Made by a program: the position numbers and the translations under genes. From Nitrospirota bacterium (GTDB taxonomy: Bacteria; Nitrospirota; JACRHJ01), in contig CAWJRJ010000021.1 of assembly GCA_963845245.1 (NCBI GenBank), positions 64,001-128,000 on the forward strand: 64,000 bases of DNA. The letters run 5' to 3'. Below, piece by piece: positions 1-17,243 of the stretch. Within the stretch, counting starts at the first letter, position 1, and each line of letters starts with the position of its first letter. The notes under the pieces were generated by a model. It was not told the origin of the DNA and searched no databases. It saw only the letters and a list, made by a program, of their open reading frames with translations.

Positions 1-812
1 CCGACATGGACGGCCAGCAGCGGATGCGAGCTTTGCCACAACCATACTCCGACCGAGGCCGCGAACAACAGCGCGTTAGCCATGGGCGGCAGGCCGCTCT
101 CATACGCGCACAGCCTGCACTTCAACGCGATATCGTCGATGCATATCGGTTCTGGCACGGTATCCAGGACCGACCTTACGCCGACCGGACTTCCGTCCTG
201 CAACGACTGCCACACGGACGCGCATACAGTCAACGCCGTTGGTGGCCCGCAGCTCTATCAGCTGCCGGTAAAGGATGGCGCCGCCGGCTTCTTGACATAC
301 GGTGGGCTACTCCGCAGCCGGTACCATATCGGTCAACGGTACCTGCACGAACACCAAGTGCCACATCAGCGCATCGCCGGCATGGAACTCCATAGCGACT
401 GGCGTCGTAGTCGGCACGACCGGCTGCGCGACTCTGCCACAGCTATCCGGGTGTTGCGGGCAGAGACTGGACCGGCACCAACGGCCATTCGATCAGGGCA
501 AACAACGTTCCAGGATGCCACGACTCCTGCTATCAGGAAGTCCATAAGCTCACCTGAACGTGGCCACGGCGTATAACAAGCTGACTGACTACATACGCAA
601 GCGTGACCGCTGATGTACGCAAGTGCGGAAAGTGCCACGCAGGCGCGACCCACATGAACGGTACTGTCAACGTAGCCGATTCCAACAGCCTCGGCCAGTG
701 CAACAGCACCAGCTTCACGTACAACAACATTTCGTCGAACCCGACGAACAGGATAGTGAACTGCAGCAACGTAAGCTGCCACTTCGGCAGGACCACGCCG
801 AACTGGTTCTAA
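1..812 (+). CDS. C-terminal part of a multiheme c-type cytochrome (CxxCH/CxxxxCH family); starts before the window and is split over several frames
   Basis: Motifs CELCH, CNDCH, CTNTKCH, CGKCH, CSNVSCH across ORFs 82-576, 302-547, 603-812; ends TTPNWF; clear paralog of 2703-3478. Confidence 0.85.
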
Positions 813-827
813 ATCTAATATGCAGCG

Positions 828-854
828 TTTGGGCCCCCCTGACGGGGGCCCAAA
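828..854 (+). terminator. GC-rich intergenic hairpin (stabiliser or weak terminator)
   Basis: TTTGGGCCCCC-ctgac-GGGGGCCCAAA just after the stop; no U-tract follows on the + strand. Confidence 0.5.
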
Positions 855-857
855 ACG

Positions 858-911
858 GCTGTGTTACTCACAGGGTGCGCAAGACCTTGCGCATCCTTTA
901 AGAAACACAGA
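858..911 (+). repeat. Conserved 54-nt intergenic stem-loop, copy A
   Basis: GCTGTGTTACTCACAGGGTGCGCAA-GACC-TTGCGCATCCTTTAAGAAACACAGA; aligns without gaps to 1343-1396 and 3527-3580. Confidence 0.85.
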
Positions 912-926
912 GGTAAGGAGAACGAA

Positions 927-1328
927 ATGAGCACCATGAAGAAAACAGTCTTAGCGATATTTACCTTGTTATTGGTTGCCGTGTTTGCTGGTTGTGCGTC
1001 CGAGCAGCAGCAGGCCGAGAAGGTAGTTTTTAATACGCTGGGGACGGTTTTGACGCTAAGAGACCGGCCGCTTTACACCAAGATTGTAAAAATCTCCTAC
1101 GAACATACCGGCAAGAATAAGCCTGGGGAGAAAAAGGCGTACTATATAAAGGGCTATGTAACTGTACGAAGGGTCGCGATGAAAGATTTCAAGTTCAGAG
1201 ACCAGACAGTACCTAAAGGGTCTACCCAGGACTACCGGTATTATTATGAAGCCAAGGTCGTCCAGGGCGTTAAGAACGCCCTGGTCCTGGTGCCGAGCGG
1301 GCTGACGATAAAACAGCAGGCGGGCTGA
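927..1328 (+). CDS. Basic lipoprotein of unknown function within the cytochrome cluster
   Basis: AAGGAG RBS before ATG 927; signal MSTMKKTVLAIFTLLLVAVFAG-C (lipobox); K/Y/V-rich body, no heme motif. Confidence 0.75.
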   Translation: MSTMKKTVLAIFTLLLVAVFAGCASEQQQAEKVVFNTLGTVLTLRDRPLYTKIVKISYEHTGKNKPGEKKAYYIKGYVTVRRVAMKDFKFRDQTVPKGSTQDYRYYYEAKVVQGVKNALVLVPSGLTIKQQAG

Positions 1329-1342
1329 CCCGTCTGGTATTG

Positions 1343-1396
1343 TTTGTATTTCTTGCAGGGCGCACAAGCCATTGCGTGCCTTGTCAGGGATACAGA
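1343..1396 (+). repeat. Conserved 54-nt intergenic stem-loop, copy B
   Basis: TTTGTATTTCTTGCAGGGCGCACAA-GCCA-TTGCGTGCCTTGTCAGGGATACAGA. Confidence 0.85.
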
Positions 1397-1444
1397 AAAC
1401 AAAATATTAAAGAAATTATAGAAATATTCAAAACGGAGGCTTAA

Positions 1445-3478
1445 ATGTCAAAAATGAGAATAGCAATAATCGCGCTCCTGGTCTTCGGACTGACCCTGGG
1501 CCTGTCCGGCATGGCCCTTGCGGTGACTATATCCTGCGGTCAGTGCCACGGCGCCTACGTCAACGACAACCACGGCGGAAAGACATTGATTCCGGGCGTG
1601 TCTGCGACTGAGGACACCAAGACACCTCAGGCCGGCGACATATGTGATAGCACAGGCCGCGGCCTGCACGGCATCCATATGAACTACTCCTCGGTAAGCT
1701 ACGGCAAGACCGGCGCTACGAGGGGCAACTGCAACTACTGCCACAACAAGCATGTACACGAGAACGGCTTCGTCGAGATGTCTGGATACAGCCCGGCCTC
1801 CGCAATTGGACCAGGTAGGCAACTTTACCATAACCAACGGCGGCACCGGCTATGTCGGCGGCGATCCGGGCGGCGATTATGTTACCGTAGTCGGCGGCAA
1901 CGGCGACGCACAGGCGTTGGTTACTACGGTTAGCGCCGGTGGCGTTATAACCGGTCTTTCCATGGGCGCGCATGGCCACAGCAAGGGCAGTGGCTATACT
2001 ACTGGTTCTGCCAACCTCTCGGGCGGGTCCGGCACGGGCGCTGTCATAAGCATAACATCGATCACCAACAACGGTTACCGTCAGTCGGTTACTTCAGCCG
2101 GCCTGGTAGTCACCGGCCCCGGTATGACCGCAGACGGCCTTGACATCACGCAGATGACCGGTAATGCAACCTGCGCCACCGCCTGCCACAAGGGCACCAG
2201 CGCAACCAACACCGCGCCGTGGGGCAACTTCACGACGCCGAGCATCCACCTGACCTGCAACAGCTGCCACGGTGACGCCTCCAACTACGGGCCCACCGCA
2301 TCGAACACCGGCCTCGGCAACGGCTTCTCCGGCACCGGCGGCCACAAGGTGCACCTGTACTCCGTAGGCGGAAGCCACGGCAACCAGCTGCTCGGCGGCA
2401 CCAAGATCGTGCTTGGCAGCTTCTCCACCGTCATCGACATGAACGGCAACAGCGACAAGGTCTGCGCGGCCTGCCACCCGGACAATACGAACGACCTTTG
2501 GAGCCAGGGCAGGGCGGACGACGGCAGCAAGAAGGCTTACCCGCACGCGACAGACGGTACCAACGTCCAGGCTAAGAATGCGAACTTTACTGCTCCTGCC
2601 AACATAGTGTTCACGAACGCTTCGGGCCTTGCCGACACCACTGGCAAACTGTCCTGCACCAACAACTGCCACTTCAACAAGTCGTCAGTGCAGAGCGCCA
2701 ACCCGACATGGACAGCGAGCAGCGGATGCGAGCTCTGCCACAACCATACGGCGACCGAGGCTGCGAACAACAGCGCCTTGGTCATGGGCGGCAGGGCGCT
2801 CTCATACGCGCACAGCCTGCACTTCAACCAGATATCGGCGATGCATGTCGGTTCGGCACGCCGCGCGGGCTTCCGTCCTGCAGCGACTGCCACACTGGCG
2901 CGCATACGATCAACGCGCTTGGCGGACCGCAGCTCATTCAGCTGCCTGTAAAGAATGGCGCCGCGGGCCTCGACTCGACGAAGGTCACCTACTCCGCTGC
3001 CGGCACCGTATCGGTCAGCGGTACCTGCACAACGACCAAGTGTCACATAACTCCCTCGCCTTCCTGGGACTCCATAGCGACTGGCGTCGTAGTCGGTACG
3101 ACCGGTTGCGCGACCTGCCACGAATATCCTGGCGCTCCGGGCAAGGACTGGGCTACGACCGGAAACGGCCACCTTGTCAGGTATGACGCTCCGGTCGTCA
3201 ACACCCACATGAAGGCGACTGGCTTCAACTACCAGACCGACAACTATGCCTCAGTTACTGCCGACACCGGCAAATGCGGCATCTGCCACAGGAACGTAAA
3301 GCACATGAACGGCACCGGCTTCGCTCACCTGAGCACGGTGACCGACACCACATACAGCGAGTGCGGCACGACTCCGTTCACGTTCTCAACAGGCGGCACC
3401 GGTACCGGCACAGACGCAGTAACCTGCAGCAACGTGAAATGCCACAGCGGCAATACTACCCCGAACTGGGGACCATAG
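1445..3478 (+). CDS. Secreted multiheme c-type cytochrome, ~12 heme motifs (apparent frameshifts near 1800 and 2860)
   Basis: GGAGG RBS; Sec signal ending MALA; CGQCH, CNYCH, CATACH, CNSCH, CAACH, CTNNCH, CELCH, CSDCH, CTTTKCH, CATCH, CGICH, CSNVKCH across ORFs 1445-1933, 1752-2951, 2708-3478. Confidence 0.88.
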
Positions 3479-3492
3479 TCTAAACCAGACAG

Positions 3493-3526
3493 CTTTGGGC
3501 CCCGCCCCGGAAGGCGGGGCCCAAAG
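3493..3526 (+). terminator. GC-rich intergenic hairpin, related to 828-854
   Basis: CTTTGGGCCCCGCC-ccggaa-GGCGGGGCCCAAAG, perfect 14-bp stem. Confidence 0.55.
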
Positions 3527-3580
3527 TCTGTATTTCTTGCAGGGTGCGCAAGACATTGCGCGCCATCCTAGGAATACAGA
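3527..3580 (+). repeat. Conserved 54-nt intergenic stem-loop, copy C
   Basis: TCTGTATTTCTTGCAGGGTGCGCAA-GACA-TTGCGCGCCATCCTAGGAATACAGA. Confidence 0.85.
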
Positions 3581-3639
3581 AGAGGAAATTAACCATTAAA
3601 AGTTTTCATCAATTTTGGTTTTCTATTAAGGAGGATAAA

Positions 3640-5266
3640 ATGGGATACACCAGTGAGTCGAAAAACAGAAGGTGGGGGTTGCCGGTAGGCCTTCTTGCCC
3701 TCATCCTGATGATGGTCCTTATAGGGACTGCGACGGCGCCTACCCCCGCAATGGCCGCGGCCATTACCTGCGGTGGGTGTCACAGCACGCCTCCCAAGGA
3801 CTCGGACAGCGGCGGCTGCAAGCAGACGACCAAGAGCCACCCGGACCACTCCACCGGTGCGGACCTGACCACTTGCGACCGCTGTCACCCGACGACCACT
3901 AGCTCTGTGCCGACGGCCAAGCACAACAACAACATCGTCAACATCACTTCGGTGGTTTCACCTGGATTGAGTTACAACAGCCTTAACGGAACGTGTACAA
4001 ACGCCTGCCACAAGAACGAACCAAACCCGACCTGGGGCGGGAGCGGCGCGGACTGCAACATCTGCCATTTCAGGAGCGGCGCAGTCGGCTCATACACTAT
4101 GTCCGGACTTCATGCTGCGCCCGGCAGGACATATATGCACTTCAGCTCTGCCATAAAAGTTGTGGACAATACCAAGACTGTAACCTGCAATAACTGCCAT
4201 CCTGCGGTGCCGTTCGCGAACAACACGACCAGCCCGCGTTCGCACATCAGGCTGCCGAACACCGCTGCAAACTTCAAGGCCCGCGCCGACATGTCGCAGG
4301 CCCATACATATGTAAGCGTTACCGGCATAGGTTATACAAAAGGTGCGACTGCGGCGGCGGGCACCTGCGCGCTTTCATGCCACAACAACTCAGGCGACAC
4401 GTTCGGCAACTACACGATCTACTTCAAGACCGGCCAGACCAGGCGTTTCGGGCCGTACTCCACGGCCAGGTGGGGTGCGTCCGACCTGAAGTGTAATGAA
4501 TGTCACAGCACGCCGAGTCAGTCGGCTACGTTCGGCGGTTCAAGCTCAGTCAACGCAAACAAGAGGCATAAGGCCCACATGTTCAGCTACAAGCTGAACC
4601 CATGGAACTTCGCCGGCCAGGACCGCAACATCTATTGCGACGACTGCCACAGGACACCGAACATAAACGCGACAAGGGGCTTTAGGGGTCACTCGACAAT
4701 CAGGCCAGGGCGGCAGCGGAATCATATCACTCCCTGTCAGATCCCAGAACGCAAAGGTCTACCTGACCTGGCGCAGCAACATCGGCCATGATGGACTTCC
4801 AACAGCATTCGATCCGTCGACCGTAACATGCTCCAACGTTTACTGCCATACCATCATGACCACGGCCCAGTGGACAGAGCAGGCCTGCAACTCATGCCAC
4901 GGCACAAAGGACGGAATCAACGTAGGTTCCGGCGCACCCGGCTACAAGGACTTTACCTCAATATCCGCGGCACAGTACCGCACGTTCGAGGACTATTCCG
5001 GCGGCGGCGGCGCGCATTACTCGCATGTCACCAAGCGTGGCTACGCCTGCCGTACATGCCATTACGATGGCGGCGGCGACGGCAACCCTGCGAACCATCA
5101 CAATAACAGCCTGACGGTATCCAGAGATAACGTAAACGTCGGTGTCGAGCCGCAGTACTGGTTCAACAACATGACCTCCAAGTACGACAAGGTTACCAGG
5201 AGCTGCAGCGACGTTGCTTGTCACTTCGGCGCGTCCCAGAACTGGGACTGCACACCGCTGCATTAG
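3640..5266 (+). CDS. Secreted multiheme c-type cytochrome, ~12 heme motifs (frameshift near 4700)
   Basis: AAGGAGG RBS before ATG 3640; hydrophobic signal; CGGCH, CDRCH, CTNACH, CNICH, CNNCH, CALSCH, CNECH, CDDCH, then CSNVYCH, CNSCH, CRTCH, CSDVACH in the frame of ORF 4856-5266. Confidence 0.88.
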
Positions 5267-5286
5267 CCTTCTGTCCATGTTTAATA

Positions 5287-5310
5287 CGGGGGCGGCGCTA
5301 GCCGCCCCCG
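5287..5310 (+). terminator. GC-rich hairpin after cytochrome gene
   Basis: CGGGGGCGGC-gcta-GCCGCCCCCG; no clear U-tract. Confidence 0.5.
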
Positions 5311-5458
5311 GTATAAAAGGTTAAATGAAGAAAAATTCACGAGGATATACGCATGGTCACAAATACATCTGGAATGCTTGTGTTTATGGGCGTAATCTTG
5401 TGAAATCTTGAATATAAAACTTAAGAATAATTTAAAAGTTTCCAACGAGGAGGAAGAA

Positions 5459-8400
5459 ATGACGAAGAGGATGAATAAATATTCCCGCAAGGCCCTTGCA
5501 ACCACAGGCATAATGCTGGTGATCGGGGTTCTCATATGGGCACTGATGGCGTTCGCGTATAATGCCACGGTAGCCACATATTCGGACGCCACGCATTCCA
5601 CTGGCAAGACGAGCTTCGGCCGCGGGGTAGATACGGTCTACACCAACATGACCGGCGGCATAGGTTCCAACACATACTATGCCGAATACTGGGGCCCGTC
5701 CACGAATGGCGGCACCGACATGGTGTACGAACCCGGAACGAGGAGCGCCCAGCTGACATCGCGGACGACCGGCGGCCTCAGTACTTCATACGTTACACAA
5801 GCTACGGACAATAGCGGCACCTGGCAGGCGAGGATATTGCACAACCCGCAGTATACCGCTCCGCAGGCGATAGTTATGGATGTCCCGGCCAAAGGGCAGG
5901 TTCTTACAGCCGGTACGGCAGTGACCCTCCAGTTCCATCTCGTTGACAGGAACGGCAACACGATGACCGGCACCGACTACCGCTCCAAGATGTACACATA
6001 CATGTCATACAACGGCTCAACAAGCTCCCCCGGCTGGCGCGCATACGCCGCCAACAACAGCAGGGCTACCTGGACGTTCAACTCAGGGACCGGCATGTAC
6101 ACCAAATCCTTTACGCCTGCCACGGCGAGCACCGGCCTCGCCCAGCTGCGCGTTTATATGTACAACTGGTGGGGCACGACCAACGGCGCGATTGAGACCG
6201 GTGACGCCTATTCCATAAGCGGCTCCACCTCGAACGACCTCTATACACAGGAGTTCTGGTATGCGACCGGCGGCACCACGACCCAGACCAACGCATTTAA
6301 TATAGTCAGCGTTGACAGCATGAACCCGAAGTTCGTGGCAAACCCGGGCGTGCCCACGATTAACTACACCTATTACTTCGACATATTCGACGGCAACGGC
6401 AACGCTGTAACAAGCGGCATCACATCATGGACGAACGTATGCCGTGGCGCAGCCGCATACGTTACCGCCGGCACACAGCCGACGGCTACGGTTTATGCCG
6501 CACCCGCATATGACGCAACCTCCGGGCACTGGAAGGTAACCTGGACGCTGCCCGCTCCCGGCAAATACGGCATTGACCTCAGGGCTACCCGCGGCAACCA
6601 GGTGAGGATGGAGGATGTCGTCCAGTACGCGGCATCAAGCGCGTTCAGCATGCTAGGCGACGTCACCCCGCCTGCAAACGTAGCTTTCGGCACGGTTACC
6701 CCGTCAGACAACAGGGTAACGCTTAACTGGACAAACCCGACCACAGACCAGGGCGGCGGCGCATTGACCGGGTTCAACGGCATCATCATACTTCGGAACC
6801 AGAACAGCCCGGTACCAACGGGCCCTTCAACAGGGCAGGAATACAGCGTGGACGGCTCAAATTCTCCATTGCCTCCTTATGGTCCGCGCCCGAACTCCAT
6901 TGGAACGAGCAGCGTCGTATATATAGGTAACGGTACGCAATACGCCGACGGCGACCCTTGCGGCGTACCTCTTACAAACGACACAATAACATATTATTAT
7001 AAGGCATATTCTTTTGACCAGTACTACAACTATTCTACCGGCATAGAGGTGTCGAGCACACCACATGACGGAGTCGCAATCGGGCCTGTGACAATTACCG
7101 GCGTTACTGCCGGCGACCAGCAGAACACCATCAACTGGATCAACCCGAGCAGGTGCGACTTCAAGGGAGTCGTGGTAAGGTACAGCACGGTTTCGTTCCC
7201 GACCGTGTGCAGCATTTCCCCATCTGCATACACTGAAACCAGCAACGGCAACCTTGTAACATATCCTGTAGGCACCGGTGTCAAGCCCGGCGGAACGCCT
7301 GGAGGAGCCGACAGCATCCCGCACACAAACCTTACAAACGGCTTTACGTATTACTATACAGTATGGGCTTACGACGACGAAGTAACGCCGTTATACAGCG
7401 CCGCGGCGAGCCCGGCGACCTATGCATCCCCGCATGACGTTACGGCGCCAGCACAGATCACAAGCCTGAGTGTTGTGGGTGGCTCTACGAACGCTTTCGG
7501 GTGCACGCTCTCCTGGACGGCCACAGGCGACGACGGGATGGTCGGGACTGCGACAAAATATGATATAAGATATTCGAAGAGCCCGATTTACATCTCAGGG
7601 GATCCGGTAGCTACCGCCACCAACTGGAACAATGCATGGGAGGCCGTAGGCACGCCCTTCCCACAGCCAATGGTCTCTGGGACGGTACAGACATATGACG
7701 TCGCCGGCCTTTCGCCGCTGACGCAGTACTATTTTGCCATCAGGGTTGCGGACGAAGTTCCCAACTGGTCTGGTGTATCCATAACTAATGCCTCGACGAC
7801 GACCCTGTGCAACCCGAAGATTTCGGCGTGCAACCAGTGCCACCTGATGCCGCCTGACGACGAACTGCCTGGCGCGCACCCGCGCGGCACCGGCAATATC
7901 GGCAACCATGACCTCCCCATACATGCGGGACAGGGCGGCGCAGACCAGTGCGACGTCTGCCACGCAGATGGCAACGTATGGCGCAACAACACGACGCTCT
8001 ACCAGGTCACGCACCAGAACGGTGTGATAGACATAAACGGCCCCGGCATGATCGGCAACGAGTGGGAGCGCACCCAGGTCCCCCCGCAAGGCGGCACGTT
8101 CTACCCATCGACCACCGTTGTATACAAGTTCAAGAACTACTCCTCGGGCGTAGGCTACAAACAGACGACGGGCTACTGCCAGAACACGTACTGCCACGGC
8201 TCCGGCCTTTCTTCCCCGATGTGGGGCCAGGGGACAATAGTCTGCGGCGAATACTGCCACGAGACCCCGCCCGCGACAGGACGCCACGTCAAGCATTACC
8301 ACCCCGGCCAGAGTTACGTCAACTTCGGTCCGGCCTCGGTCAAAGTAAGCGGCTATACCAATGGAGAAGGCGTAATCGACTCTTCGGACGACGGAACCAT

Positions 8401-11400
8401 AGGCTGGAGCCCGGCGGCTACGGCCAACTCGATGCCGCTGCCTGTTGGTAGCAACAGGGATTTGCGGTACGCCACTTACATATCCTCCTCGAACGGCTCA
8501 ACCAAAACCTTCAACGTGGGCAACGGGATATGGTATGTCACCGTCTGCGTAGGCGATTCGTTTGTTGCAAAAACGAAGCAGACCGTTATGGCATCCGGTG
8601 ACGGCGGGGCCTCCTGGGTCAAGCTTATAGACAACTTTGACACCATGCCACAGAAGCTCTACAAAAAGGCGGTCGACATACCGGTGTTGGTAACGGGCAG
8701 CAGCAATCTGCGGATAAAGATAGGCAATGGCAGCAATCCGACACAGCTTTGTTACCTTATAATAAACAGTACGCCAGAAGCCCCGAAGTCGAATAACACC
8801 CTGTTAAAGAACACGGCTACGGAGTATGGTTTCTCGTGCGGCAAGTGCCACACCGACGATACGACCCAGGCGAGGCATACAAGCCACGTCGACGGGCCGG
8901 TACAGAGAGGCATAAGGGACGCCGAGAACGCATTTGACGGCAACTCAAACCCCAAGAACCCCCTCGGGCTGTACACTTCAGATGTAGCGTTATTCGGCAA
9001 CATATCGACATATATCGACGGCCAGGGCTACCCCTACACCAACGGCCGCGGCTGCAAAAACCTGTACTGCCACGGTTCCACGCTGCATGCTGGCGGCAGC
9101 AACCATACGCCGACATGGAAGGACGGATACATAGACGTGACCGGGGCCTCGATCTGCGGGTCGTGCCACGATGCGGGCTATGCGGACACCACCCCGTTGT
9201 CAAACATTACCACCGGGTCGCATACAAAACACACGAATAACACCTACGCATACAGGTTCGACTGCTACAAGTGCCATAACAGGACGGTTCTGCAGAAAGA
9301 CCCTGCAAACGGCAATAAAATAAAGATCGCCAACAAGATCTATCACGTAAACGGCCAAGCGGACGTTTACTTTGACCCGACCGACAACACGATGCTGTTT
9401 GGCAAGTACTCGACCTCTCAAAAGACGTGCTACAACGTCTACTGCCACTCGAACGGTCTCCTGGATAAGGCGGACAAGCCTATAAGCTGGGCAACGAAAT
9501 ATGCGACTCCGCAGTGGGCCAGCGGCTCAAAGACCTGCAACTACTGCCATGGCACCAGCAGGCCTGACGGCATGCCGGACTATGCGAACTTCGTGAACAG
9601 CACTTCTGGAACTCCCAACAGTCATCCCAAGCATGTGGACGAGAACAAGCTCGGCTGCTCCAAGTGCCACTACAACACCACCAGGAACAACGGCGCCAGC
9701 ATCTATACGACGATGCAGCCCTCGCTCCATGTGAACGGCATAGCCGACGTGACGTTCGATTCGGAGAACAACAACGGGACGTTCAACGGCTCATTCGACC
9801 ATGCCAACCAGCAGTGTTCAGGCACTTACTGCCATGGCCGTAGCTCACCGCCACAATGGGGCGGCGTGGTTGACTGCGGTAGCTGTCACGGAGTCAGCCC
9901 AACGAACCCGAACCCAGGCATCGGCGCGCACCTCATACATAACAACGGCGCCTTCAGCCTTGTCACCAGTGTCGTCACCAACGCATCGAGCAGCACGACT
10001 TACAATTTCACGTGCAACTTCTGCCACTTCAGCAGGACACACGGCGGCGGCGAGTACATAACGGGCGTGCAGACGGCTGAAACGAATTTCAACACCGTCA
10101 CCCCGACAAACGGCTACAACAACAATGGCGCAACATATACGCGCGGTACGGCGACATTGACCGATACAAGTAACTGGCACTACTCCGCCGGAACCTGCGC
10201 AAACACCAAGTGTCACAGCAGCAACAGCACCGGTGGCGCACCGAACAACGCTTTTGTCACCTGGACCAGCAAGTTCGTAGGTACATCAAGAGAGTGCTAC
10301 CAGTGCCACAACGGCGACGCGAGCGCGCCCGCCGGCAGAAGGATGAAGAGCGGTGCGCATGCGATGCATGTATTTACCTCCGTATACAGGAGGTCATGTG
10401 AGGAGTGCCACGCATTGACGGCTTCTTTAAACACCGTCGCCGACAAGTCTAAGCATGTAAACGGCACGGTTGATGTGAGCATCCTCCCGGCATACGGCGG
10501 CACTTTCGACAGCTCCAAGAACTGCAGTAACGTCTATTGCCACTCAAACGCCAACCCGTCGGCATGGGGCACGGGCACGGTATACTACAAGTCGATGAAC
10601 TGGAACACCGGTCCGGCCACCACCTGCACCAGTTGCCACAGCAACAATCATGTTGTCGGCGGTGACGGAGTCAGGTCTGAAGATCAGACGCTTTCGTTCA
10701 ACCACAGGAAGCACCTGAACCCGGCCACCGACTCGCTGCTTGGCGGCTACGGCTCCAGGATCGGCTGCACGAACTGCCATAACCTGACGGCGAAGACCAA
10801 TACATCCCTATATACAAGCATTGTGCCGTCTAACCATAACAATATGAACAAGGACATCTACTTCTCGACCAGCTTCTTCACCATGTCCGGCGTAAACACC
10901 GTTTACGGTGGCGGCGTTAACGGTACTGCATACTGGGGTCAGTGGAACACCCCTAACTCCGGCAGCTGTACTGTCATATGCCACTCAGACGCGCGCGGCG
11001 GAGACCCGCTGGTGTTCCCGAACTGGTCAACGACTCAGGGCTCGTATGGCTGTACGTCGTGCCACGCGGCCGACGCGACTACGTTCGCGCTGCCGAACTA
11101 CACCGGCAACGACAGCCACGAGAAGCACGTGAGCAACGGGGTTACCTGCAACACCTGCCACCGTCTGACGGCAGGCAACAACGCTGGGACGCCGTTCATA
11201 AACGCATCAGGCTTTACTTCCCACCATGTCAACGGCAGCGCGGGCAACGACGTGAAACTTTCTGTCATAGGCAATTATTCCACGGTGTCGAGGTCGTGCT
11301 CAAGCCTGAGTTGCCATGGGCACAGGGTCTGGGGTCAGCATTATGCTTCGAGCTGCAACAGCTGCCACGCCGCGCCGCCCGCGTACGCCCAGCACACGTT

Positions 11401-14400
11401 CCACAGCGGCCAGACGGGTGTAACAGCGAACCTCAATACCGACACCTCGAACGCCACTACCTACAAGTTCGGCTGCGGTAAATGCCATACCCTGGCCGCT
11501 ACTTCTCATAACAGCGGCAACGTCTCGTTGTACCAGACCGCGGAGGTAAAGTTCGACGCGACGGTCAACCCGGTGAACTCGTTGGGCAAATACACCACGC
11601 TCGGCGCGTTATGGGCTACCGATGCCCAGGGCAAGACGTACACTGCCGGTACCTGCAAGAACCTCTACTGCCACAGCAACGGCCAGACAGGCACTTATGC
11701 GAAGTACAGTTCCGTCAGGTGGAATACGACGGCTGTCTACTGCACAAGCTGCCACGGCGACGCGACGGCAGGGACTCTTTCAACGCCGCACAACAAGCAC
11801 GTGAACACACTTGCGGCAGGCAGCTATAACTTCGGTTGCGTGCAGTGCCACAACAGGACTGTTGCCAGCAACTCCGCGATCAGCAACAAGGCGAACCACG
11901 TCAACGGTGTCAAGGACGTGTTCTTCAAGAAGTTCTCATCGGTGGCGTTCGGCAACAAGACCGGTTCGTACAATACGGTAAACTGCTCGAACACCTACTG
12001 CCACAGCGACGGGAACGGCACGTCAAAGACGCCGACGTGGGCGAGCGGGACTATAAACTGCGCGAGCTGCCACAACTACACGGTTGCGTCCGGCTCGGAA
12101 ATCACGACGGGCAAACACACGCAGCATATCCACAACGGCAACCTTGGCACCTACAGGTGTGTAGACTGCCACAGCGACACGGTTATGGCGAACAACTCCA
12201 CCATAATCTACACGAACGGCACGCACGTGAACGGCGTCAAGAACCTCAACTTCCTTGACAAGTCGTTGAACAACTTCACGGGCGCGTATGTTACGGCAAC
12301 CAAGACCTGCCGCAACAACTACTGCCATAGCTCCGGCCAGGCCAAGAGCGGCACCGGCTCGTTCGCCAACCTCTCCACGCCGGTATTCAGGACCACCGCC
12401 GTATGGACCGGTGGTGCGCTTGACTGCAAGGGTTGTCACGGCGCGGACACCGGCTTCACCAGCCAGTTCGGCGAACCGAACTACACCAACAGGTCCACGG
12501 CAAGCAGGGCATGGTACAACGGCCACGCGAAGCACGTGAAGAGCGTGACCGATTGCAATAAGTGTCATAACCTGACGACCGCCGACGGTGTTAGCATACT
12601 GGCCGGAGGCATGCACATCAACGGCAGCAGGGACGTCAACTTCAACCTGACACTGTTACCGGGCGCTTCATACAACAGCACGAGGAAGATGTGCACCGTG
12701 CCTACCTGCCACACAGGCACGGTAAGGTGGGGCGGCACGGTCCCGAACAGCTGCCAGAGCTGCCATGCGGACATGGGCGCTGGTAAATACACGAACCACA
12801 GCACGACCGGCAAGCACGCAAAGCATACGAATTCGACAACATACAAGTTCGCATGCGAGAACTGCCACAAGACGATGGACACCTCCGGCAACACGACTCA
12901 TGCTGGTGGTAACGTATCAACATATCAGACGGCGCAGGTGGCCTTCAGGACCAACTCCACCACCTGGGATTACGTGACCTACGACGGGGCCGGTACGCAG
13001 TTCAAGTATATAAGGATCGACTCGATGTACGGCACGACCGTGACACCGATATACAAGGCGGTCTCTACGACCAGCCCGCTCTCCGACAGCGTGGTGGCCA
13101 GCCGCAAGTTTACGCAGGGCAGGTGCTCGAACGTGTGGTGCCACTCTGACGGCCACAAGTTCGGCAACACGAGTACCGTATTCGTGAAGTATGCGAACTG
13201 GTCTACTGCGGAGACGACAAACTGCCGCAGCTGCCACGCTGGCGATAAGTCTGCTGCGCCGACGATGTCATCGGGCAAGCATACGAACCACATTAATAAC
13301 GGCAACCTCGGCAATTTCACCTGCTCGCGGTGCCACACGGACACGGTAAGGGGCAACTCGACCGTATACAACTATGACTACCACGTGAACGGAGTGAAGA
13401 ACATAAACTTCACCTCTATAGTGCAGGCAAACTATACCGGAGCCTACGTATCGGCTACCAGCACCTGCCGCAACGTGTACTGCCATAGCTCGGGTACGAA
13501 GTACACCAGCATGACAAACGCCACTTCCTCGCCTACGTTCAGGACCCCGACGTGGAGCGACACGGCCTGGGCCAGTAAGTGCAAGGGCTGCCACGGCGCG
13601 GACAGCGGCTTCACCAGCAAGTTCGGCGAGCCTAACTATGCGAACAGGTCAACGGCGAGCAGGGCCTGGTTTAACGGTCATTACGTGTCCAGCCACGTCA
13701 GTGTAGCAGCCGACTGCTTCAAGTGCCACGCTGCCACGGTTTTGAGTAACGGCACTTCCATCAACACATCGGGCAAGCACCTTAACGGGTTCAGGAACGT
13801 CTCGTTCACGGCAGGCGGCACTTATGACGCCACGAACAAACGTTGCAGCAACACCGCGACGGGTTGCCACGGCACGACCACGATGCGTTGGGGCGGTACT
13901 GGCACCTGCCAGACATGCCATGCGACCACCGGGACCGAGGTAAACGACTACGTATATGGCAACGGCACACAGGCCACCATAAGCATGACCCAGTACACCT
14001 CGATAGGCCACGGCAGGAAGATAGGCAGGTATGCCTACAGCAACCAGTCCGGCGCATCGAGCGCGAACCACAGCGCGGCGAGGAAGGTATCTGACTGCTC
14101 GACCTGCCATGACTCGACAGTGCTGCACAATATGACTTCCGGTGCGACGCCGAACTTCTTCAGGCTCAAGGGCGGCGGCGACCCGAACGCGCTATGCTCA
14201 TCCTGCCACTCGACGACTACTGAGGCGCACCACAACCAGGCCAACACCGGCGGCAACGCCAACTGGGCCATACTGACGCCGAAATGCGTGGACTGCCATG
14301 ACCCGCACGGAGACACAGGCGCAAACGGCAGGAGCAATGCGTACATGATCGGAGGTATGATAAACTACACCTCCAACAGCAAGTACGACGGCAGGCCTGC

Positions 14401-17243
14401 CGGTACCAACGGCAGCCTCATGAGGGCAGTGAACTTCCCTGCCAACGTGAGCCAGCCCACGGTGCTTAACTACACCAGCTTCGTGAGGCCCACTTACGAC
14501 GGCCTGTGCCAGATATGCCATATAAGGGGCGTCGATTCGGCTGCTCCCGGCGGCACTACATCACCGATACACTTCAACAGGGCGCTTTATACGACCCATA
14601 ACAACCCGACAGTCTGCACAAGCTGCCATAGCCACTCCACCGGCTTCCAGGGCGCAGGCGGCGACTGCAAGGGCTGCCACGGCACCGGCGGGTCCGCTAC
14701 ATTAGCTGGTAGACGCGACATGCAGCTAGAGTTCAACAACTCGTCCTCGCATCATATTGTAGGCAACTGGACGAACATCACGAAGTATGAATGTGCGGCA
14801 TGCCACGCAGAGGGCAACTATGCCGACGGCTCCCTCTCCGCACTACATACGGGTACACATGCAAAGCCTGTTTACCTGAAGAAGTGGAATGCGGCTATCA
14901 CTACGGGCAGCAACGGTACCTTTACCGTGATAAGCACAAACAGCCTCGCTACCAACAGCAGCGTGCTTACGCCGTTCTGCCTCGGCTGCCACAGCGACCA
15001 GAACAACGCCGCCACGCCGTTTGTGGCCTCAGGCGACACCAGGAACCCGACCAGCTACTCATGGGACAACAACTCTGTCGGGAGCAAGTACAGCAACGTA
15101 TCGACTACGCCGTGGGGCAAGTTCAACTCCTCGACGTACAACGTCGTCCCGGCCGACCAGGTCACCAAGGCATTCAGCCCGCACGGCCAGACCGGCAAGA
15201 ACGACATGCCAAAGAGCCTTAACTCGTTTGCCATCTACTCGGGCACCAAGGCCGTCCAGTGCTACGACTGCCATAACGCCCATGCCTCTAACGTCACCGG
15301 TGGCACTTCCTACACCAGCGGCAACAACGAGGGTGGCATAATCAAGACGACCTCCACCTATGTCCCGAGGGCGGGCGGCTCTACGGCTACGAAGAACGCG
15401 TACAGCTCAAGCGCCGACCTCTGCTTTGACTGCCACCTGGGCGAGAACGGCTCCGGCGCACCGAAGACCTACAGGGACTACGGTATACCGAGCGGCAAGG
15501 CGATTGTCGGCTACTACGACCGCGTGGGCATGAACTTCAGCAACTACAGCTCATCGAGGTGGTCAACAAGCGACGTGTGGCGCGGCAGCTTTGCCTACAA
15601 AGACGGCACGTTCAAGGGCGGCCACTTCGGCAACTCGCAGGGCTACCTACAGGAGGGCCTGGGCACCATGGGTACAAAGGTCAACGGCAACTGCACCGCC
15701 TGCCACGACCCGCACGGCGTTTCGCCTGCCATCAAGAGGGGCTTCACGAAGCTGACGCGTACAGTCTACGCGGCCGCCAGCACCGAAACCGACCCGGTCC
15801 TTTCGGGCAGCTATACCGGAACGGCGAACGCCTCGAACGTAAACGTCATACAGATTGTGGCCGGCGGCGCATTAGGCACGGCTACCTACAGGGCATCCAC
15901 CAACGCCGGCAAGACCTGGGGAAGCACTACCAGCACCAGCACCGCCTGGGCGGCTAACGGTATTACCGCTACATTCCAGGCCGGTAACTACAGCGTTGAC
16001 GATACATGGACCTTCCTGTCAGGCGCAAACCCGAACTTCATGGCCCCGGCACTGAAGGGTACATGGATGCACTCCCCGTACAAGGAGGACCGTACGCCGA
16101 GGAACACGTATACTACGGACAAGGGCAACGGCGAGGCCACTGCAAGGCTTGCAGGCATCTTTAAGGCCGACGACTACACCACCTATGCGGACCAGACGGG
16201 CTGGACTACCGCCAAGAGGTACTGGGATGACACTCACCGGCGGCACCAGCGCCGCAGGCACCAACAGGAAGGTCGGCGGCCCGGCCCCGAGGGCGAACCC
16301 GGACTTCAAGACCGGCTCTTACGTGCCGGGCTACAACACCCCTGCGATACAGGGCGACGGCTTCGGCCGCGGCCCGGTACGCAGCTACGGTGCCGGCTTC
16401 ACGAACGTGACCAGCATGAGGGGCTGGAACGGCTACTTCATAGACGAGAACACATTCGGGCAGACTACTGCCAAGCAATACGGGTATGTCAATCCGTATA
16501 GCAATATGAGTACGGCCAACCCGGCTGCATGGAACCCCGGCAACTTCGCCGGCCTGTGCCTGAAATGCCATGCATGGCAGAAGAACACGGCGAGTTCCAT
16601 ATCGCTTTCGAACGTGACCTCGGCGAACCTTGCCACTGGCACGCAGAGGGTGACGACCAAGGTCCACGAGACGGTCGCGAACCTGGGCACCATAACGGTC
16701 AACCTCTTCCAGCGTAACGAGGGCACCGGCTCATACACATCAATAGCCTGCCGACTGGTGGGTATGCATATGAGCCAGTACAACGGCAACGACGGCTCCG
16801 CCAGCGAGACCGGCGGACCAACCGGTGCGGCCGCAGCTAAGCTACACTGCTGTCTATGGTATCCTGGATACGACGGGCCAATCCGGAACCAGCGACCAGC
16901 GCAGCCATTACTACCGCTGGGGCGTGAGCGGCAGCGCGCAGAAGACCGCTGGCACAGATACAGGCCAAGTACCACCAGTTCCCGTGCAGCAAGTGCCATA
17001 CGCCGCATGCCTCCAGGCTGCCGAGGCTGATGAAGACGAACTGCCTCGACAACGACAACGTCGGCACGGCGCACACCACGATGGGCTATGTCGGCAACAC
17101 CGCCACCATGAGCGGCACCGCTGCTACGAACCTCTGGGGCGCGCTTGCCAGGAACGTGGCCTGCCACAGCACCAAGATAGGCTACGCTCGGCAGCTGCGC
17201 TACGTACACCCCCGGCGGCTGGAACAACAAGACGCCCTGGTAA
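5459..17243 (+). CDS. Giant surface multiheme cytochrome c (~3,900 aa) with N-terminal Ig/FN3-like domains; C-terminus reconstructed across several indels after ~16230
   Basis: GAGGAGG RBS before ATG 5459; signal/TM segment; manual count 41 CxxCH, 13 CxxxxCH, 2 CxxxCH and 1 Cx6CH in ORF 5408-16501; continues in shifted frames (GLCLKCH, HQFPCSKCHTPHASRLPRLMKTNCLD) to GWNNKTPW-stop at 17241-17243. Confidence 0.92.

Follow-up and report, generated by a model that had tools for sequence, protein, structure and literature searches.

Hairpins that lie between the genes of a polycistronic mRNA are known from several systems. In the early region of phage T7, R1-R5 are RNase III processing hairpins between the genes of a polycistronic mRNA, and a substrate hairpin of RNase III has a mostly Watson-Crick duplex of about 20 bp or more (about two turns), often with an internal loop. 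The hairpins of the Rhodobacter capsulatus puf operon are intercistronic stem-loops that stabilize mRNA, and repetitive extragenic palindromic (REP) sequences in malE-malF and in the his transport operon reportedly act in the same way, in work attributed to Higgins in 1982 and to Stern in 1988. Here we describe HP-B, a conserved hairpin that stands in three consecutive intercistronic gaps of a cytochrome gene cluster in an uncultured Nitrospirota bacterium. The three gaps lie near the start of a 64,000-nt stretch (assembly GCA_963845245.1, contig CAWJRJ010000021.1, positions 64,001 to 128,000, forward strand), called the window below, in whose numbering positions are given unless a contig or locus is named. 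Elements of this kind are known; on sequence comparison, HP-B adds a new sequence family to them, found in one small uncultured lineage only.

Like R1-R5, HP-B is met once per gap, in successive gaps along an extended array of co-oriented genes; its imperfect duplex spans about two turns and contains small internal mismatches, it has no U-tract, and after its predicted cleavage the upstream message would carry a hairpin at its 3′ end. It has no sequence relationship to R1-R5 and differs from them in its strongly conserved paired nucleotides and in a separate GC hairpin, HP-A, just upstream; in addition, its host is a bacterial chromosome rather than a phage, and its cleavage is predicted. With the puf, mal, and his stem-loops it shares the form of a stable hairpin without a U-tail between operon genes and a presumed inequality in the abundance of upstream and downstream messages, but its greater length, its expandable apex, and its usual pairing with a second hairpin set HP-B apart. 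REP copies are dispersed and number in the hundreds, against five for HP-B, all in one type of operon.

A conserved hairpin in three consecutive intercistronic gaps

An initial annotation of the window had called three copies of an RNA hairpin, and our alignment confirmed their positions, their gap-free register, and the consensus core written for them. The gap-free alignment of the three copies spans 58 nt, and the element measures 54 to 58 nt. They are listed here with their scores from a covariance model built from the five HP-B copies of this genome (R1) and from a broader model (R2).

858-911, + strand: HP-B copy 1, a-type, paired core 859-910; R1 79 bits, R2 71.1 bits
1343-1396, + strand: HP-B copy 2, b-type; R1 69.5 bits, R2 59.7 bits
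3527-3580, + strand: HP-B copy 3, b-type; R1 80 bits, R2 66.7 bits

Folding of the + strand alone gave one long hairpin for each copy, at −27.9, −28.5, and −29.7 kcal/mol for copies 1, 2, and 3, with z values of −6.98, −5.40, and −7.73 and none of 200 shuffled sequences as stable, while the reverse complements fold more weakly, at −26.8, −16.7, and −22.1 kcal/mol. Copy 1 lies between a stop codon at 810-812 and a start at 927, with only 16 nt from the hairpin to that start codon; for copy 2 the flanking stop and start are at 1326-1328 and 1445, and for copy 3 at 3476-3478 and 3640. Reading of these gaps bore out the further statement that each copy comes after a stop codon, ahead of the next ribosome-binding site (RBS), and has no U-tract. 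Purine-rich runs (AGAA/AGAG) follow all three copies instead, on which grounds we rejected an intrinsic terminator.

Compensatory changes across homologous operons

Relatives of HP-B were gathered with an alignment of the downstream cytochrome (A3) as anchor, and the upstream regions were then read and searched with cmsearch. The A3 search gave 5 loci from genome contigs (Nitrospirae/Nitrospirota metagenome-assembled genomes) and 11 from metagenome contigs. Copies with a long apex (L018 and L020) were missed by unfiltered cmsearch, and the default filters recovered both. The total set comprises 20 distinct instances of HP-B, all of them sense-oriented, intercistronic, and in homologous operons: 17 follow a cytA-type gene (protein end ...TPNW[WFY]) and its strong GC hairpin, and three follow a small lipoprotein gene. 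Downstream, the start codon of a cytB-type gene lies at a distance of 52 to 65 nt, behind a conserved AAGGAGG, in 14 of the 20. HP-B is an intercistronic element and not the leader of a gene; it is missing where a cytB paralogue comes first in a unit of its own after an AT-rich region (G002:C29), and likewise from L021 and L022, in which a cytB-type gene comes after AT-rich sequence.

Pairs were counted over a 22-pair structure in a strand-pure MAFFT alignment of the 20 instances (A5), made without fitting to a model; alignment A4, in which both strands are mixed, was not used for these counts. We found that 90.7% of the 440 cells pair, compared to 83.6 ± 0.8% in shuffled alignments, and that compensatory changes on both sides occur at 12 of the 22 pairs, compared to 6.3 ± 1.5; no shuffle out of 500 reached either value. 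Over five measures, the shuffle control reached the observed value in 0/500 cases on four and in 1/500 on the fifth (further pair types), figures that overstate the significance because the 20 instances are kin. A control in which the partners are slid by 1 to 3 columns is free of that weakness, and in it pairing falls to 30 to 52%. Among the five copies of this genome, compensatory change is seen at 4 of 21 pairs. Alignment columns 9/52 are A-U in three of these copies and G-C in two, which is the basal-stem exchange that had been picked out from the window copies, and the covariation is clear in the larger alignment as well. When the three window copies and 12 relatives were folded independently, each gave the same long hairpin, well below its shuffles. 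Judged by the covariation in the 20-sequence alignment, the HP-B structure is under selection for pairing.

The duplex has about 22 bp with recurrent 1x1 mismatches. Four of its pairs never vary, and CAA/UUG (columns 26-28 with 98-100) is invariant in all 20 instances; next to no variation is seen at the basal CUGU/ACAG or the internal CU/AG. By comparison, the apex has 4 nt in this genome, and its length in relatives runs from 6 to about 70 nt, while the arms are retained. The longest HP-B has 122 nt (L004 929-1050), and the apical inserts mostly lengthen the helix. Several of the long inserts, at L004 929-1050, L020 1358-1450, and L032 1366-1450, share a GGGCAAGCGGG-like stretch. This shared stretch suggests that the long-apex form may be ancestral and the 54-nt form a deletion derivative.

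RNA structure or duplex DNA

RNA or single-strand structure is favored over a duplex-DNA operator, a preference already voiced in the initial annotation; here it comes from stems that are kept over an apex of 4 to about 70 nt and from the compensatory changes within one genome. An inverted-repeat operator in duplex DNA, for example one bound by the upstream-encoded NarL/LuxR-type response regulator and acting on internal promoters, could draw on the near-perfect inverted repeat of HP-B, which scores on both strands, on the two-component system just upstream, and on one weak sigma-70-like match over the 3′ arm of copy 2 (1381-1408, + strand; TTGTCA, 16-nt spacer, AATATT, 9/12), found at this copy only. 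Such an operator is disfavored because a dimeric DNA-binding protein needs fixed half-site spacing, and compensatory changes among copies of a single genome are unexplained by the half-site preference of one protein. In addition, the 16 nt between copy 1 and its start codon leave no room for a promoter, and sigma-70 promoter matches inside or after HP-B are at chance level (3 found versus 2.2 expected). We regard the duplex-DNA operator as extremely improbable.

Two further readings of short motifs were rejected: a sigma-54 −24/−12 promoter in GG...TTGC has the wrong spacing, as judged by eye against the consensus, and the columns of the AUCCU stretch, a candidate for anti-Shine-Dalgarno pairing, vary. 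For the strand, the argument from G·U pairs that had been made for the + strand holds in the window copies (7 G·U versus 1 A·C) and is weaker than stated over the 20 instances, where the bias is modest (29 G·U versus 17 A·C); the minus strand of HP-B also folds and scores with the covariance model. The main ground for assignment to the + strand is that every one of the 20 instances is in sense orientation.

Copy number, distribution, and known RNA families

The genome searched has 2.88 Mb in 37 contigs and is 90% complete. Both R1 and R2 give exactly five HP-B loci in it, three in the window and two at a paralogous cytochrome locus on contig C24. REP sequences and bacterial interspersed mosaic elements, which come in tens to hundreds of dispersed extragenic copies whatever genes adjoin them, were ruled out on this count, with five copies only, all in two paralogous cytochrome loci; the genome-wide scatter that the initial annotation had named as the mark of a plain REP is absent. 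Four of eleven genomes from this family gave a single syntenic copy each with R1; the R1 matches in G012, G025, and G040 were dropped as unrelated short terminator-like hairpins. The class holds no family but this one, and R2 matched in 5 of its 12 genomes and in none of 139 other sampled Nitrospirota genomes. All four class genomes that have a cytB-type gene at E <= 1e-20 carry HP-B, and the seven class genomes without HP-B have no cytB-type gene at that threshold; G008 has HP-B yet only a more distant cytochrome. Three consecutive copies are present in G007, in which an extra cytochrome gene (cytB) is bounded by hairpins. Across five genera plus metagenomic relatives, the positions of HP-B are syntenic. 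A search of sequencing runs for this genome returned no RNA run, and in the ten DNA runs that it returned, 5 to 9% of the sampled words were present.

A scan of the whole window against Rfam 15 (4227 families) at gathering thresholds returned only 6S RNA (RF00013; 24773-24951, − strand, 103.1 bits, full length). In the region 780-3680 at E <= 10, the scan gave four chance-level matches to miRNA precursors (E 0.79 to 7.5), far below gathering scores. Like the candidate structured RNA motifs of Rfam, HP-B is conserved, covarying, cis-located, and tied to a class of genes, but it matches no family at the gathering threshold, in agreement with the initial annotation, which had not recognized a known riboswitch in it. 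We also rejected a riboswitch from its form, which is a single unbranched hairpin with its invariant nucleotides paired, no terminator after it, and the RBS 52 to 65 nt off in 14 of 20 instances. A full-text search of the literature found no description of HP-B, and passages of one review (PMC3184786) held none either.

Cytochrome genes and a gene insertion

HP-B is flanked by genes for a lipoprotein and for c-type cytochromes, the latter with the CxxxxCH/CxxCH domain (TIGR01904).

1-812, + strand: 3′ part of cytA, which runs in from upstream, with a frame break near 576-603 and the stop codon at 810-812 (open reading frame list; weak TIGR01904 and MtrC-like matches)
927-1328, + strand: gene for a predicted lipoprotein of 133 aa (translation; paralogue on C24)
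1445-3478, + strand: cytA2, cytochrome gene in three frames (2, 3, 2) (open reading frame list, homologue alignment)
3640-5266, + strand: cytB, cytochrome gene interrupted near 4789-4856 (open reading frame list, family matches)

The window cytA is homologous to the intact upstream cytochromes of L005/L006. The lipoprotein was called from a cysteine-containing signal-peptide motif read from the sequence and has no Pfam/NCBIfam family match, and no relatives of solved structure were found for cytA and cytB at E <= 0.01. All three cytochrome genes (1-812, 1445-3478, and 3640-5266) are split over two or three frames compared to intact homologues, and a housekeeping RNase E/G gene (G000:C13:11646-12954) is likewise split, over two adjoining frames. 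Because this core gene elsewhere is also split, assembly indels are the likeliest cause, which suggests that the frame breaks are assembly errors rather than pseudogenes or programmed frameshifting.

The sequence of 1-812 and the 3′ part of cytA2 (2703-3478) are paralogous coding sequence with 84 to 91% identity. HP-B falls into two subtypes, an a-type at 858, which is 93% identical to the a-type copy on C24, and a b-type at 1343 and 3527, whose two copies are 79% identical to each other. The paralogous locus on C24 (G000:C24:141295-144000, minus strand; L001) has, in order, cytA, HP-A with an a-type HP-B, the lipoprotein gene, a b-type HP-B, and an intact cytB of 547 aa, with a single HP-B at the junction of lipoprotein gene and cytB. 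The window locus looks like this arrangement plus an inserted cytochrome gene (1445-3478) that has a b-type HP-B on both sides, and the C24 locus probably shows the arrangement that preceded the insertion. The repetition in three consecutive gaps is present as first annotated, but its independence is only partial: the subtypes indicate that the triple occurrence in part reflects a gene insertion that duplicated one subtype, and that the copies are not fully independent.

This history lends something to the reading that HP-B has no function in expression and is a selfish or neutral repeat, like a REP sequence or a MITE (miniature inverted-repeat transposable element), or else a recombination scar or junction of cytochrome gene duplication. 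Copies 2 and 3 are of one subtype and flank the inserted gene where C24 has a single copy, the extra gene of G007 is bounded in the same manner, and conserved arms with a variable interior resemble terminal inverted repeats. Against it stand the five copies in the genome with none outside cytochrome loci, the syntenic positions in five genera and metagenomic relatives, and the covariation, which implies selection on pairing; we consider it very unlikely. No direct repeats (target-site duplications) are visible at the HP-B ends and there are no dispersed copies, and a MITE was rejected for these reasons. An integron attC site is an imperfect palindrome bounded by 5′-RYYYAAC ... GTTRRRY-3′ that lies between promoterless cassettes, with an integron integrase nearby. 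HP-B has ends in the opposite order, 5′-CUGURUU ... AAYACAG-3′ (GTT-type first, AAC-type last; no search for an integrase was made), and its genes form a syntenic operon conserved across genera, so that attC was rejected as well.

A different possibility, which we hold to be unlikely, is that HP-B is a portable gene-junction module, read by a dedicated lineage-specific factor that binds or cuts RNA and for which the invariant paired nucleotides would be the code, and that, with the same hairpin at every junction, recombination between copies inserts, duplicates, and swaps whole cytochrome genes. If this is true, cytA2 here and the extra cytB in G007 would be examples of such recombination. Genes placed in this way would arrive with their processing signal, in an integrase-free, recombination-based analogue of a cassette array for extracellular electron-transfer genes.

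Several neighboring features were observed as well. Directly downstream of the cluster, at 5408-16501 (+ strand), a single open reading frame encodes a giant multi-heme cytochrome of 3697 aa, with many CxxCH-type heme motifs, eight stretches of GSu_C4xC__C2xCH, and MtrC/MtrF-like domains. About 300 nt of cytA2 (1816-2127) are Gly-rich, with GGxG-type repeats seen by eye, and do not align to the L005/L006 homologues (a gap between tblastn segments). Upstream of the window, L002 9983-14062 (G000:C21:55983-60062) encodes a sensor kinase in pieces (dCache, two GAF, and HisKA_3 domains) and a NarL/LuxR-type response regulator. Some 440 bp of AT-rich sequence separate these regulators from the first cytochrome gene, and this stretch is probably the regulated promoter region of the cluster.

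GC hairpins upstream of HP-B

The initial inventory of the gaps was right for HP-B and missed the GC hairpins that precede the three copies. These are listed with the spacer that follows copy 3.

828-854 (C21:64828-64854), + strand: HP-A1, TTTGGGCCCC...GGGGCCCAAA, 11-bp perfect stem by folding, with no U-tract after it
1317-1336, + strand: weak 8-bp hairpin across the lipoprotein stop codon, before HP-B copy 2 (fold, terminator scan)
3493-3526 (C21:67493-67526), + strand: HP-A3, 14-bp perfect stem
3581-3639, + strand: A/U-rich spacer after HP-B copy 3, with a strong Shine-Dalgarno sequence (AAGGAGGAUAAA AUG) at its end

A strong GC hairpin ends 0 to 5 nt before HP-B in 17 of the 20 instances, and the layout of A/U-rich spacer and Shine-Dalgarno sequence recurs before the cytB-type genes of relatives, again with 52 to 65 nt from hairpin end to start. 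Another GC hairpin (10 bp, all GC, CGGGGGCGGC...GCCGCCCCCG) was seen at 5285-5312, between cytB and the giant cytochrome gene, with no HP-B after it.

HP-A resembles an intercistronic attenuator terminator in having a GC-rich stem right after the stop codon and then a moderately U-rich stretch. One could therefore read HP-A together with the U-rich 5′ arm of HP-B as a leaky intrinsic terminator that steps transcription down after each cytochrome gene, with the rest of HP-B secondary. A terminator consensus scan flags 3492-3527 and 1317-1336, because the T-rich 5′ arm of HP-B follows (CUGUAUUUCU / GUAUUGUUUG), and not the hairpin before copy 1; most instances have a 5′ arm rich in pyrimidines and in U. 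The likeness ends with the lack of a U-tail on HP-B and with the polarity of HP-A. Canonical terminators of this genome have AAGGGCC...GGCCCTT stems followed by 6 to 9 T in the next 10 nt, whereas HP-A has the reverse order, TTTGGG...CCCAAA, with T upstream and A downstream, and the first bases after it are ACGG, UCUG, AAGG, or GGGC rather than U. From this opposite polarity and these non-U bases, HP-A would be a poor terminator and a good barrier to 3′ exonucleases. Moreover, the region shows no enrichment of terminator-like sites (4 found versus 5.9 expected), and a leaky terminator leaves unexplained why the 3′ arm and the upper stem are conserved and covary, as well as the HP-B copies that lack HP-A. 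We think this explanation distinctly unlikely.

Discussion

The reading that we favor, tentatively and with slightly less than even confidence, is that HP-B is a cis-acting processing and segment-stability signal of the RNase III-substrate type on a polycistronic mRNA. The transcript would be cut in the long imperfect duplex of HP-B by a double-strand-specific endonuclease (RNase III). The upstream cytochrome message would then end in HP-A, which would block 3′ exonucleases and so stabilize it, and the downstream message would open with a leader that is short, A-rich, and unstructured and with a strong Shine-Dalgarno sequence. Neighboring genes of one transcript could thus reach different steady-state levels, and HP-B probably helps the cell to make unequal amounts of each protein from one long message. 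An intact rnc gene (RNase III) is present at C30:57610-58272, and RNase E/G is also encoded. By analogy with known substrates, the size of HP-B is consistent with an RNase III substrate: it has 22 consensus pairs, or about two helical turns, with 90.7% of positions paired and recurrent 1x1 mismatches.

Several points weigh against this reading, in addition to the kinship of the 20 instances, the modest strand bias, and the folding of the minus strand given above. The three copies that follow the lipoprotein gene lack a strong HP-A, so that the logic of two hairpins is not universal. Two junctions of the cluster have no HP-B, namely, the one between the cluster's first two cytochrome genes, cyt1 and cytA (L002 16607-16742), and the gap between cytB and the giant cytochrome gene (5266-5408), which has a GC hairpin only. 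Strict conservation of the paired CUGU/ACAG, CU/AG, and CAA/UUG is more typical of a site for a sequence-specific binding protein, and RNase III has a weak sequence preference.

These conserved pairs, which stay fixed while other pairs covary, are fitted at least as well by an operator for a dedicated RNA-binding protein with sequence specificity, for instance a repressor or activator of translation or a factor of processive antitermination, which would bind HP-B without its being cut and would coordinate the cytochrome genes. The dispensable and variable apex, as in many protein-bound hairpins, and the restriction of the motif to one operon type in one lineage also agree with such an operator. 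The neighborhood offers no candidate for the protein, however, since what is adjacent is the DNA-binding NarL/LuxR-type regulator and the Cache-GAF-HisKA_3 kinase in pieces, and HP-B is clear of the RBS in 14 of 20 instances, 52 to 65 nt upstream of the start. Nor can HP-B be a classical antiterminator of HP-A, because it lies after the GC hairpin and not before it. We rate a protein operator as rather doubtful. The initial annotation had proposed either an endonuclease processing or stabilization site or an RNA-binding-protein operator that sets subunit stoichiometry, and both functions are consistent with the anatomy of HP-B as predicted here.

Multi-heme cytochrome clusters supply the machinery for extracellular electron transfer and metal cycling, and, to our knowledge, how cells set very different amounts of the cytochrome components is largely unknown outside Geobacter and Shewanella. 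By itself, HP-B reveals no new principle; its main value is as a clean, testable signal in electron-transfer gene clusters. It is a concrete candidate for a post-transcriptional signal in an uncultured Nitrospirota lineage, short, with clear covariation, and tied to one operon type, and it is suited to RNA family databases and to the marking of operon junctions in metagenomes.

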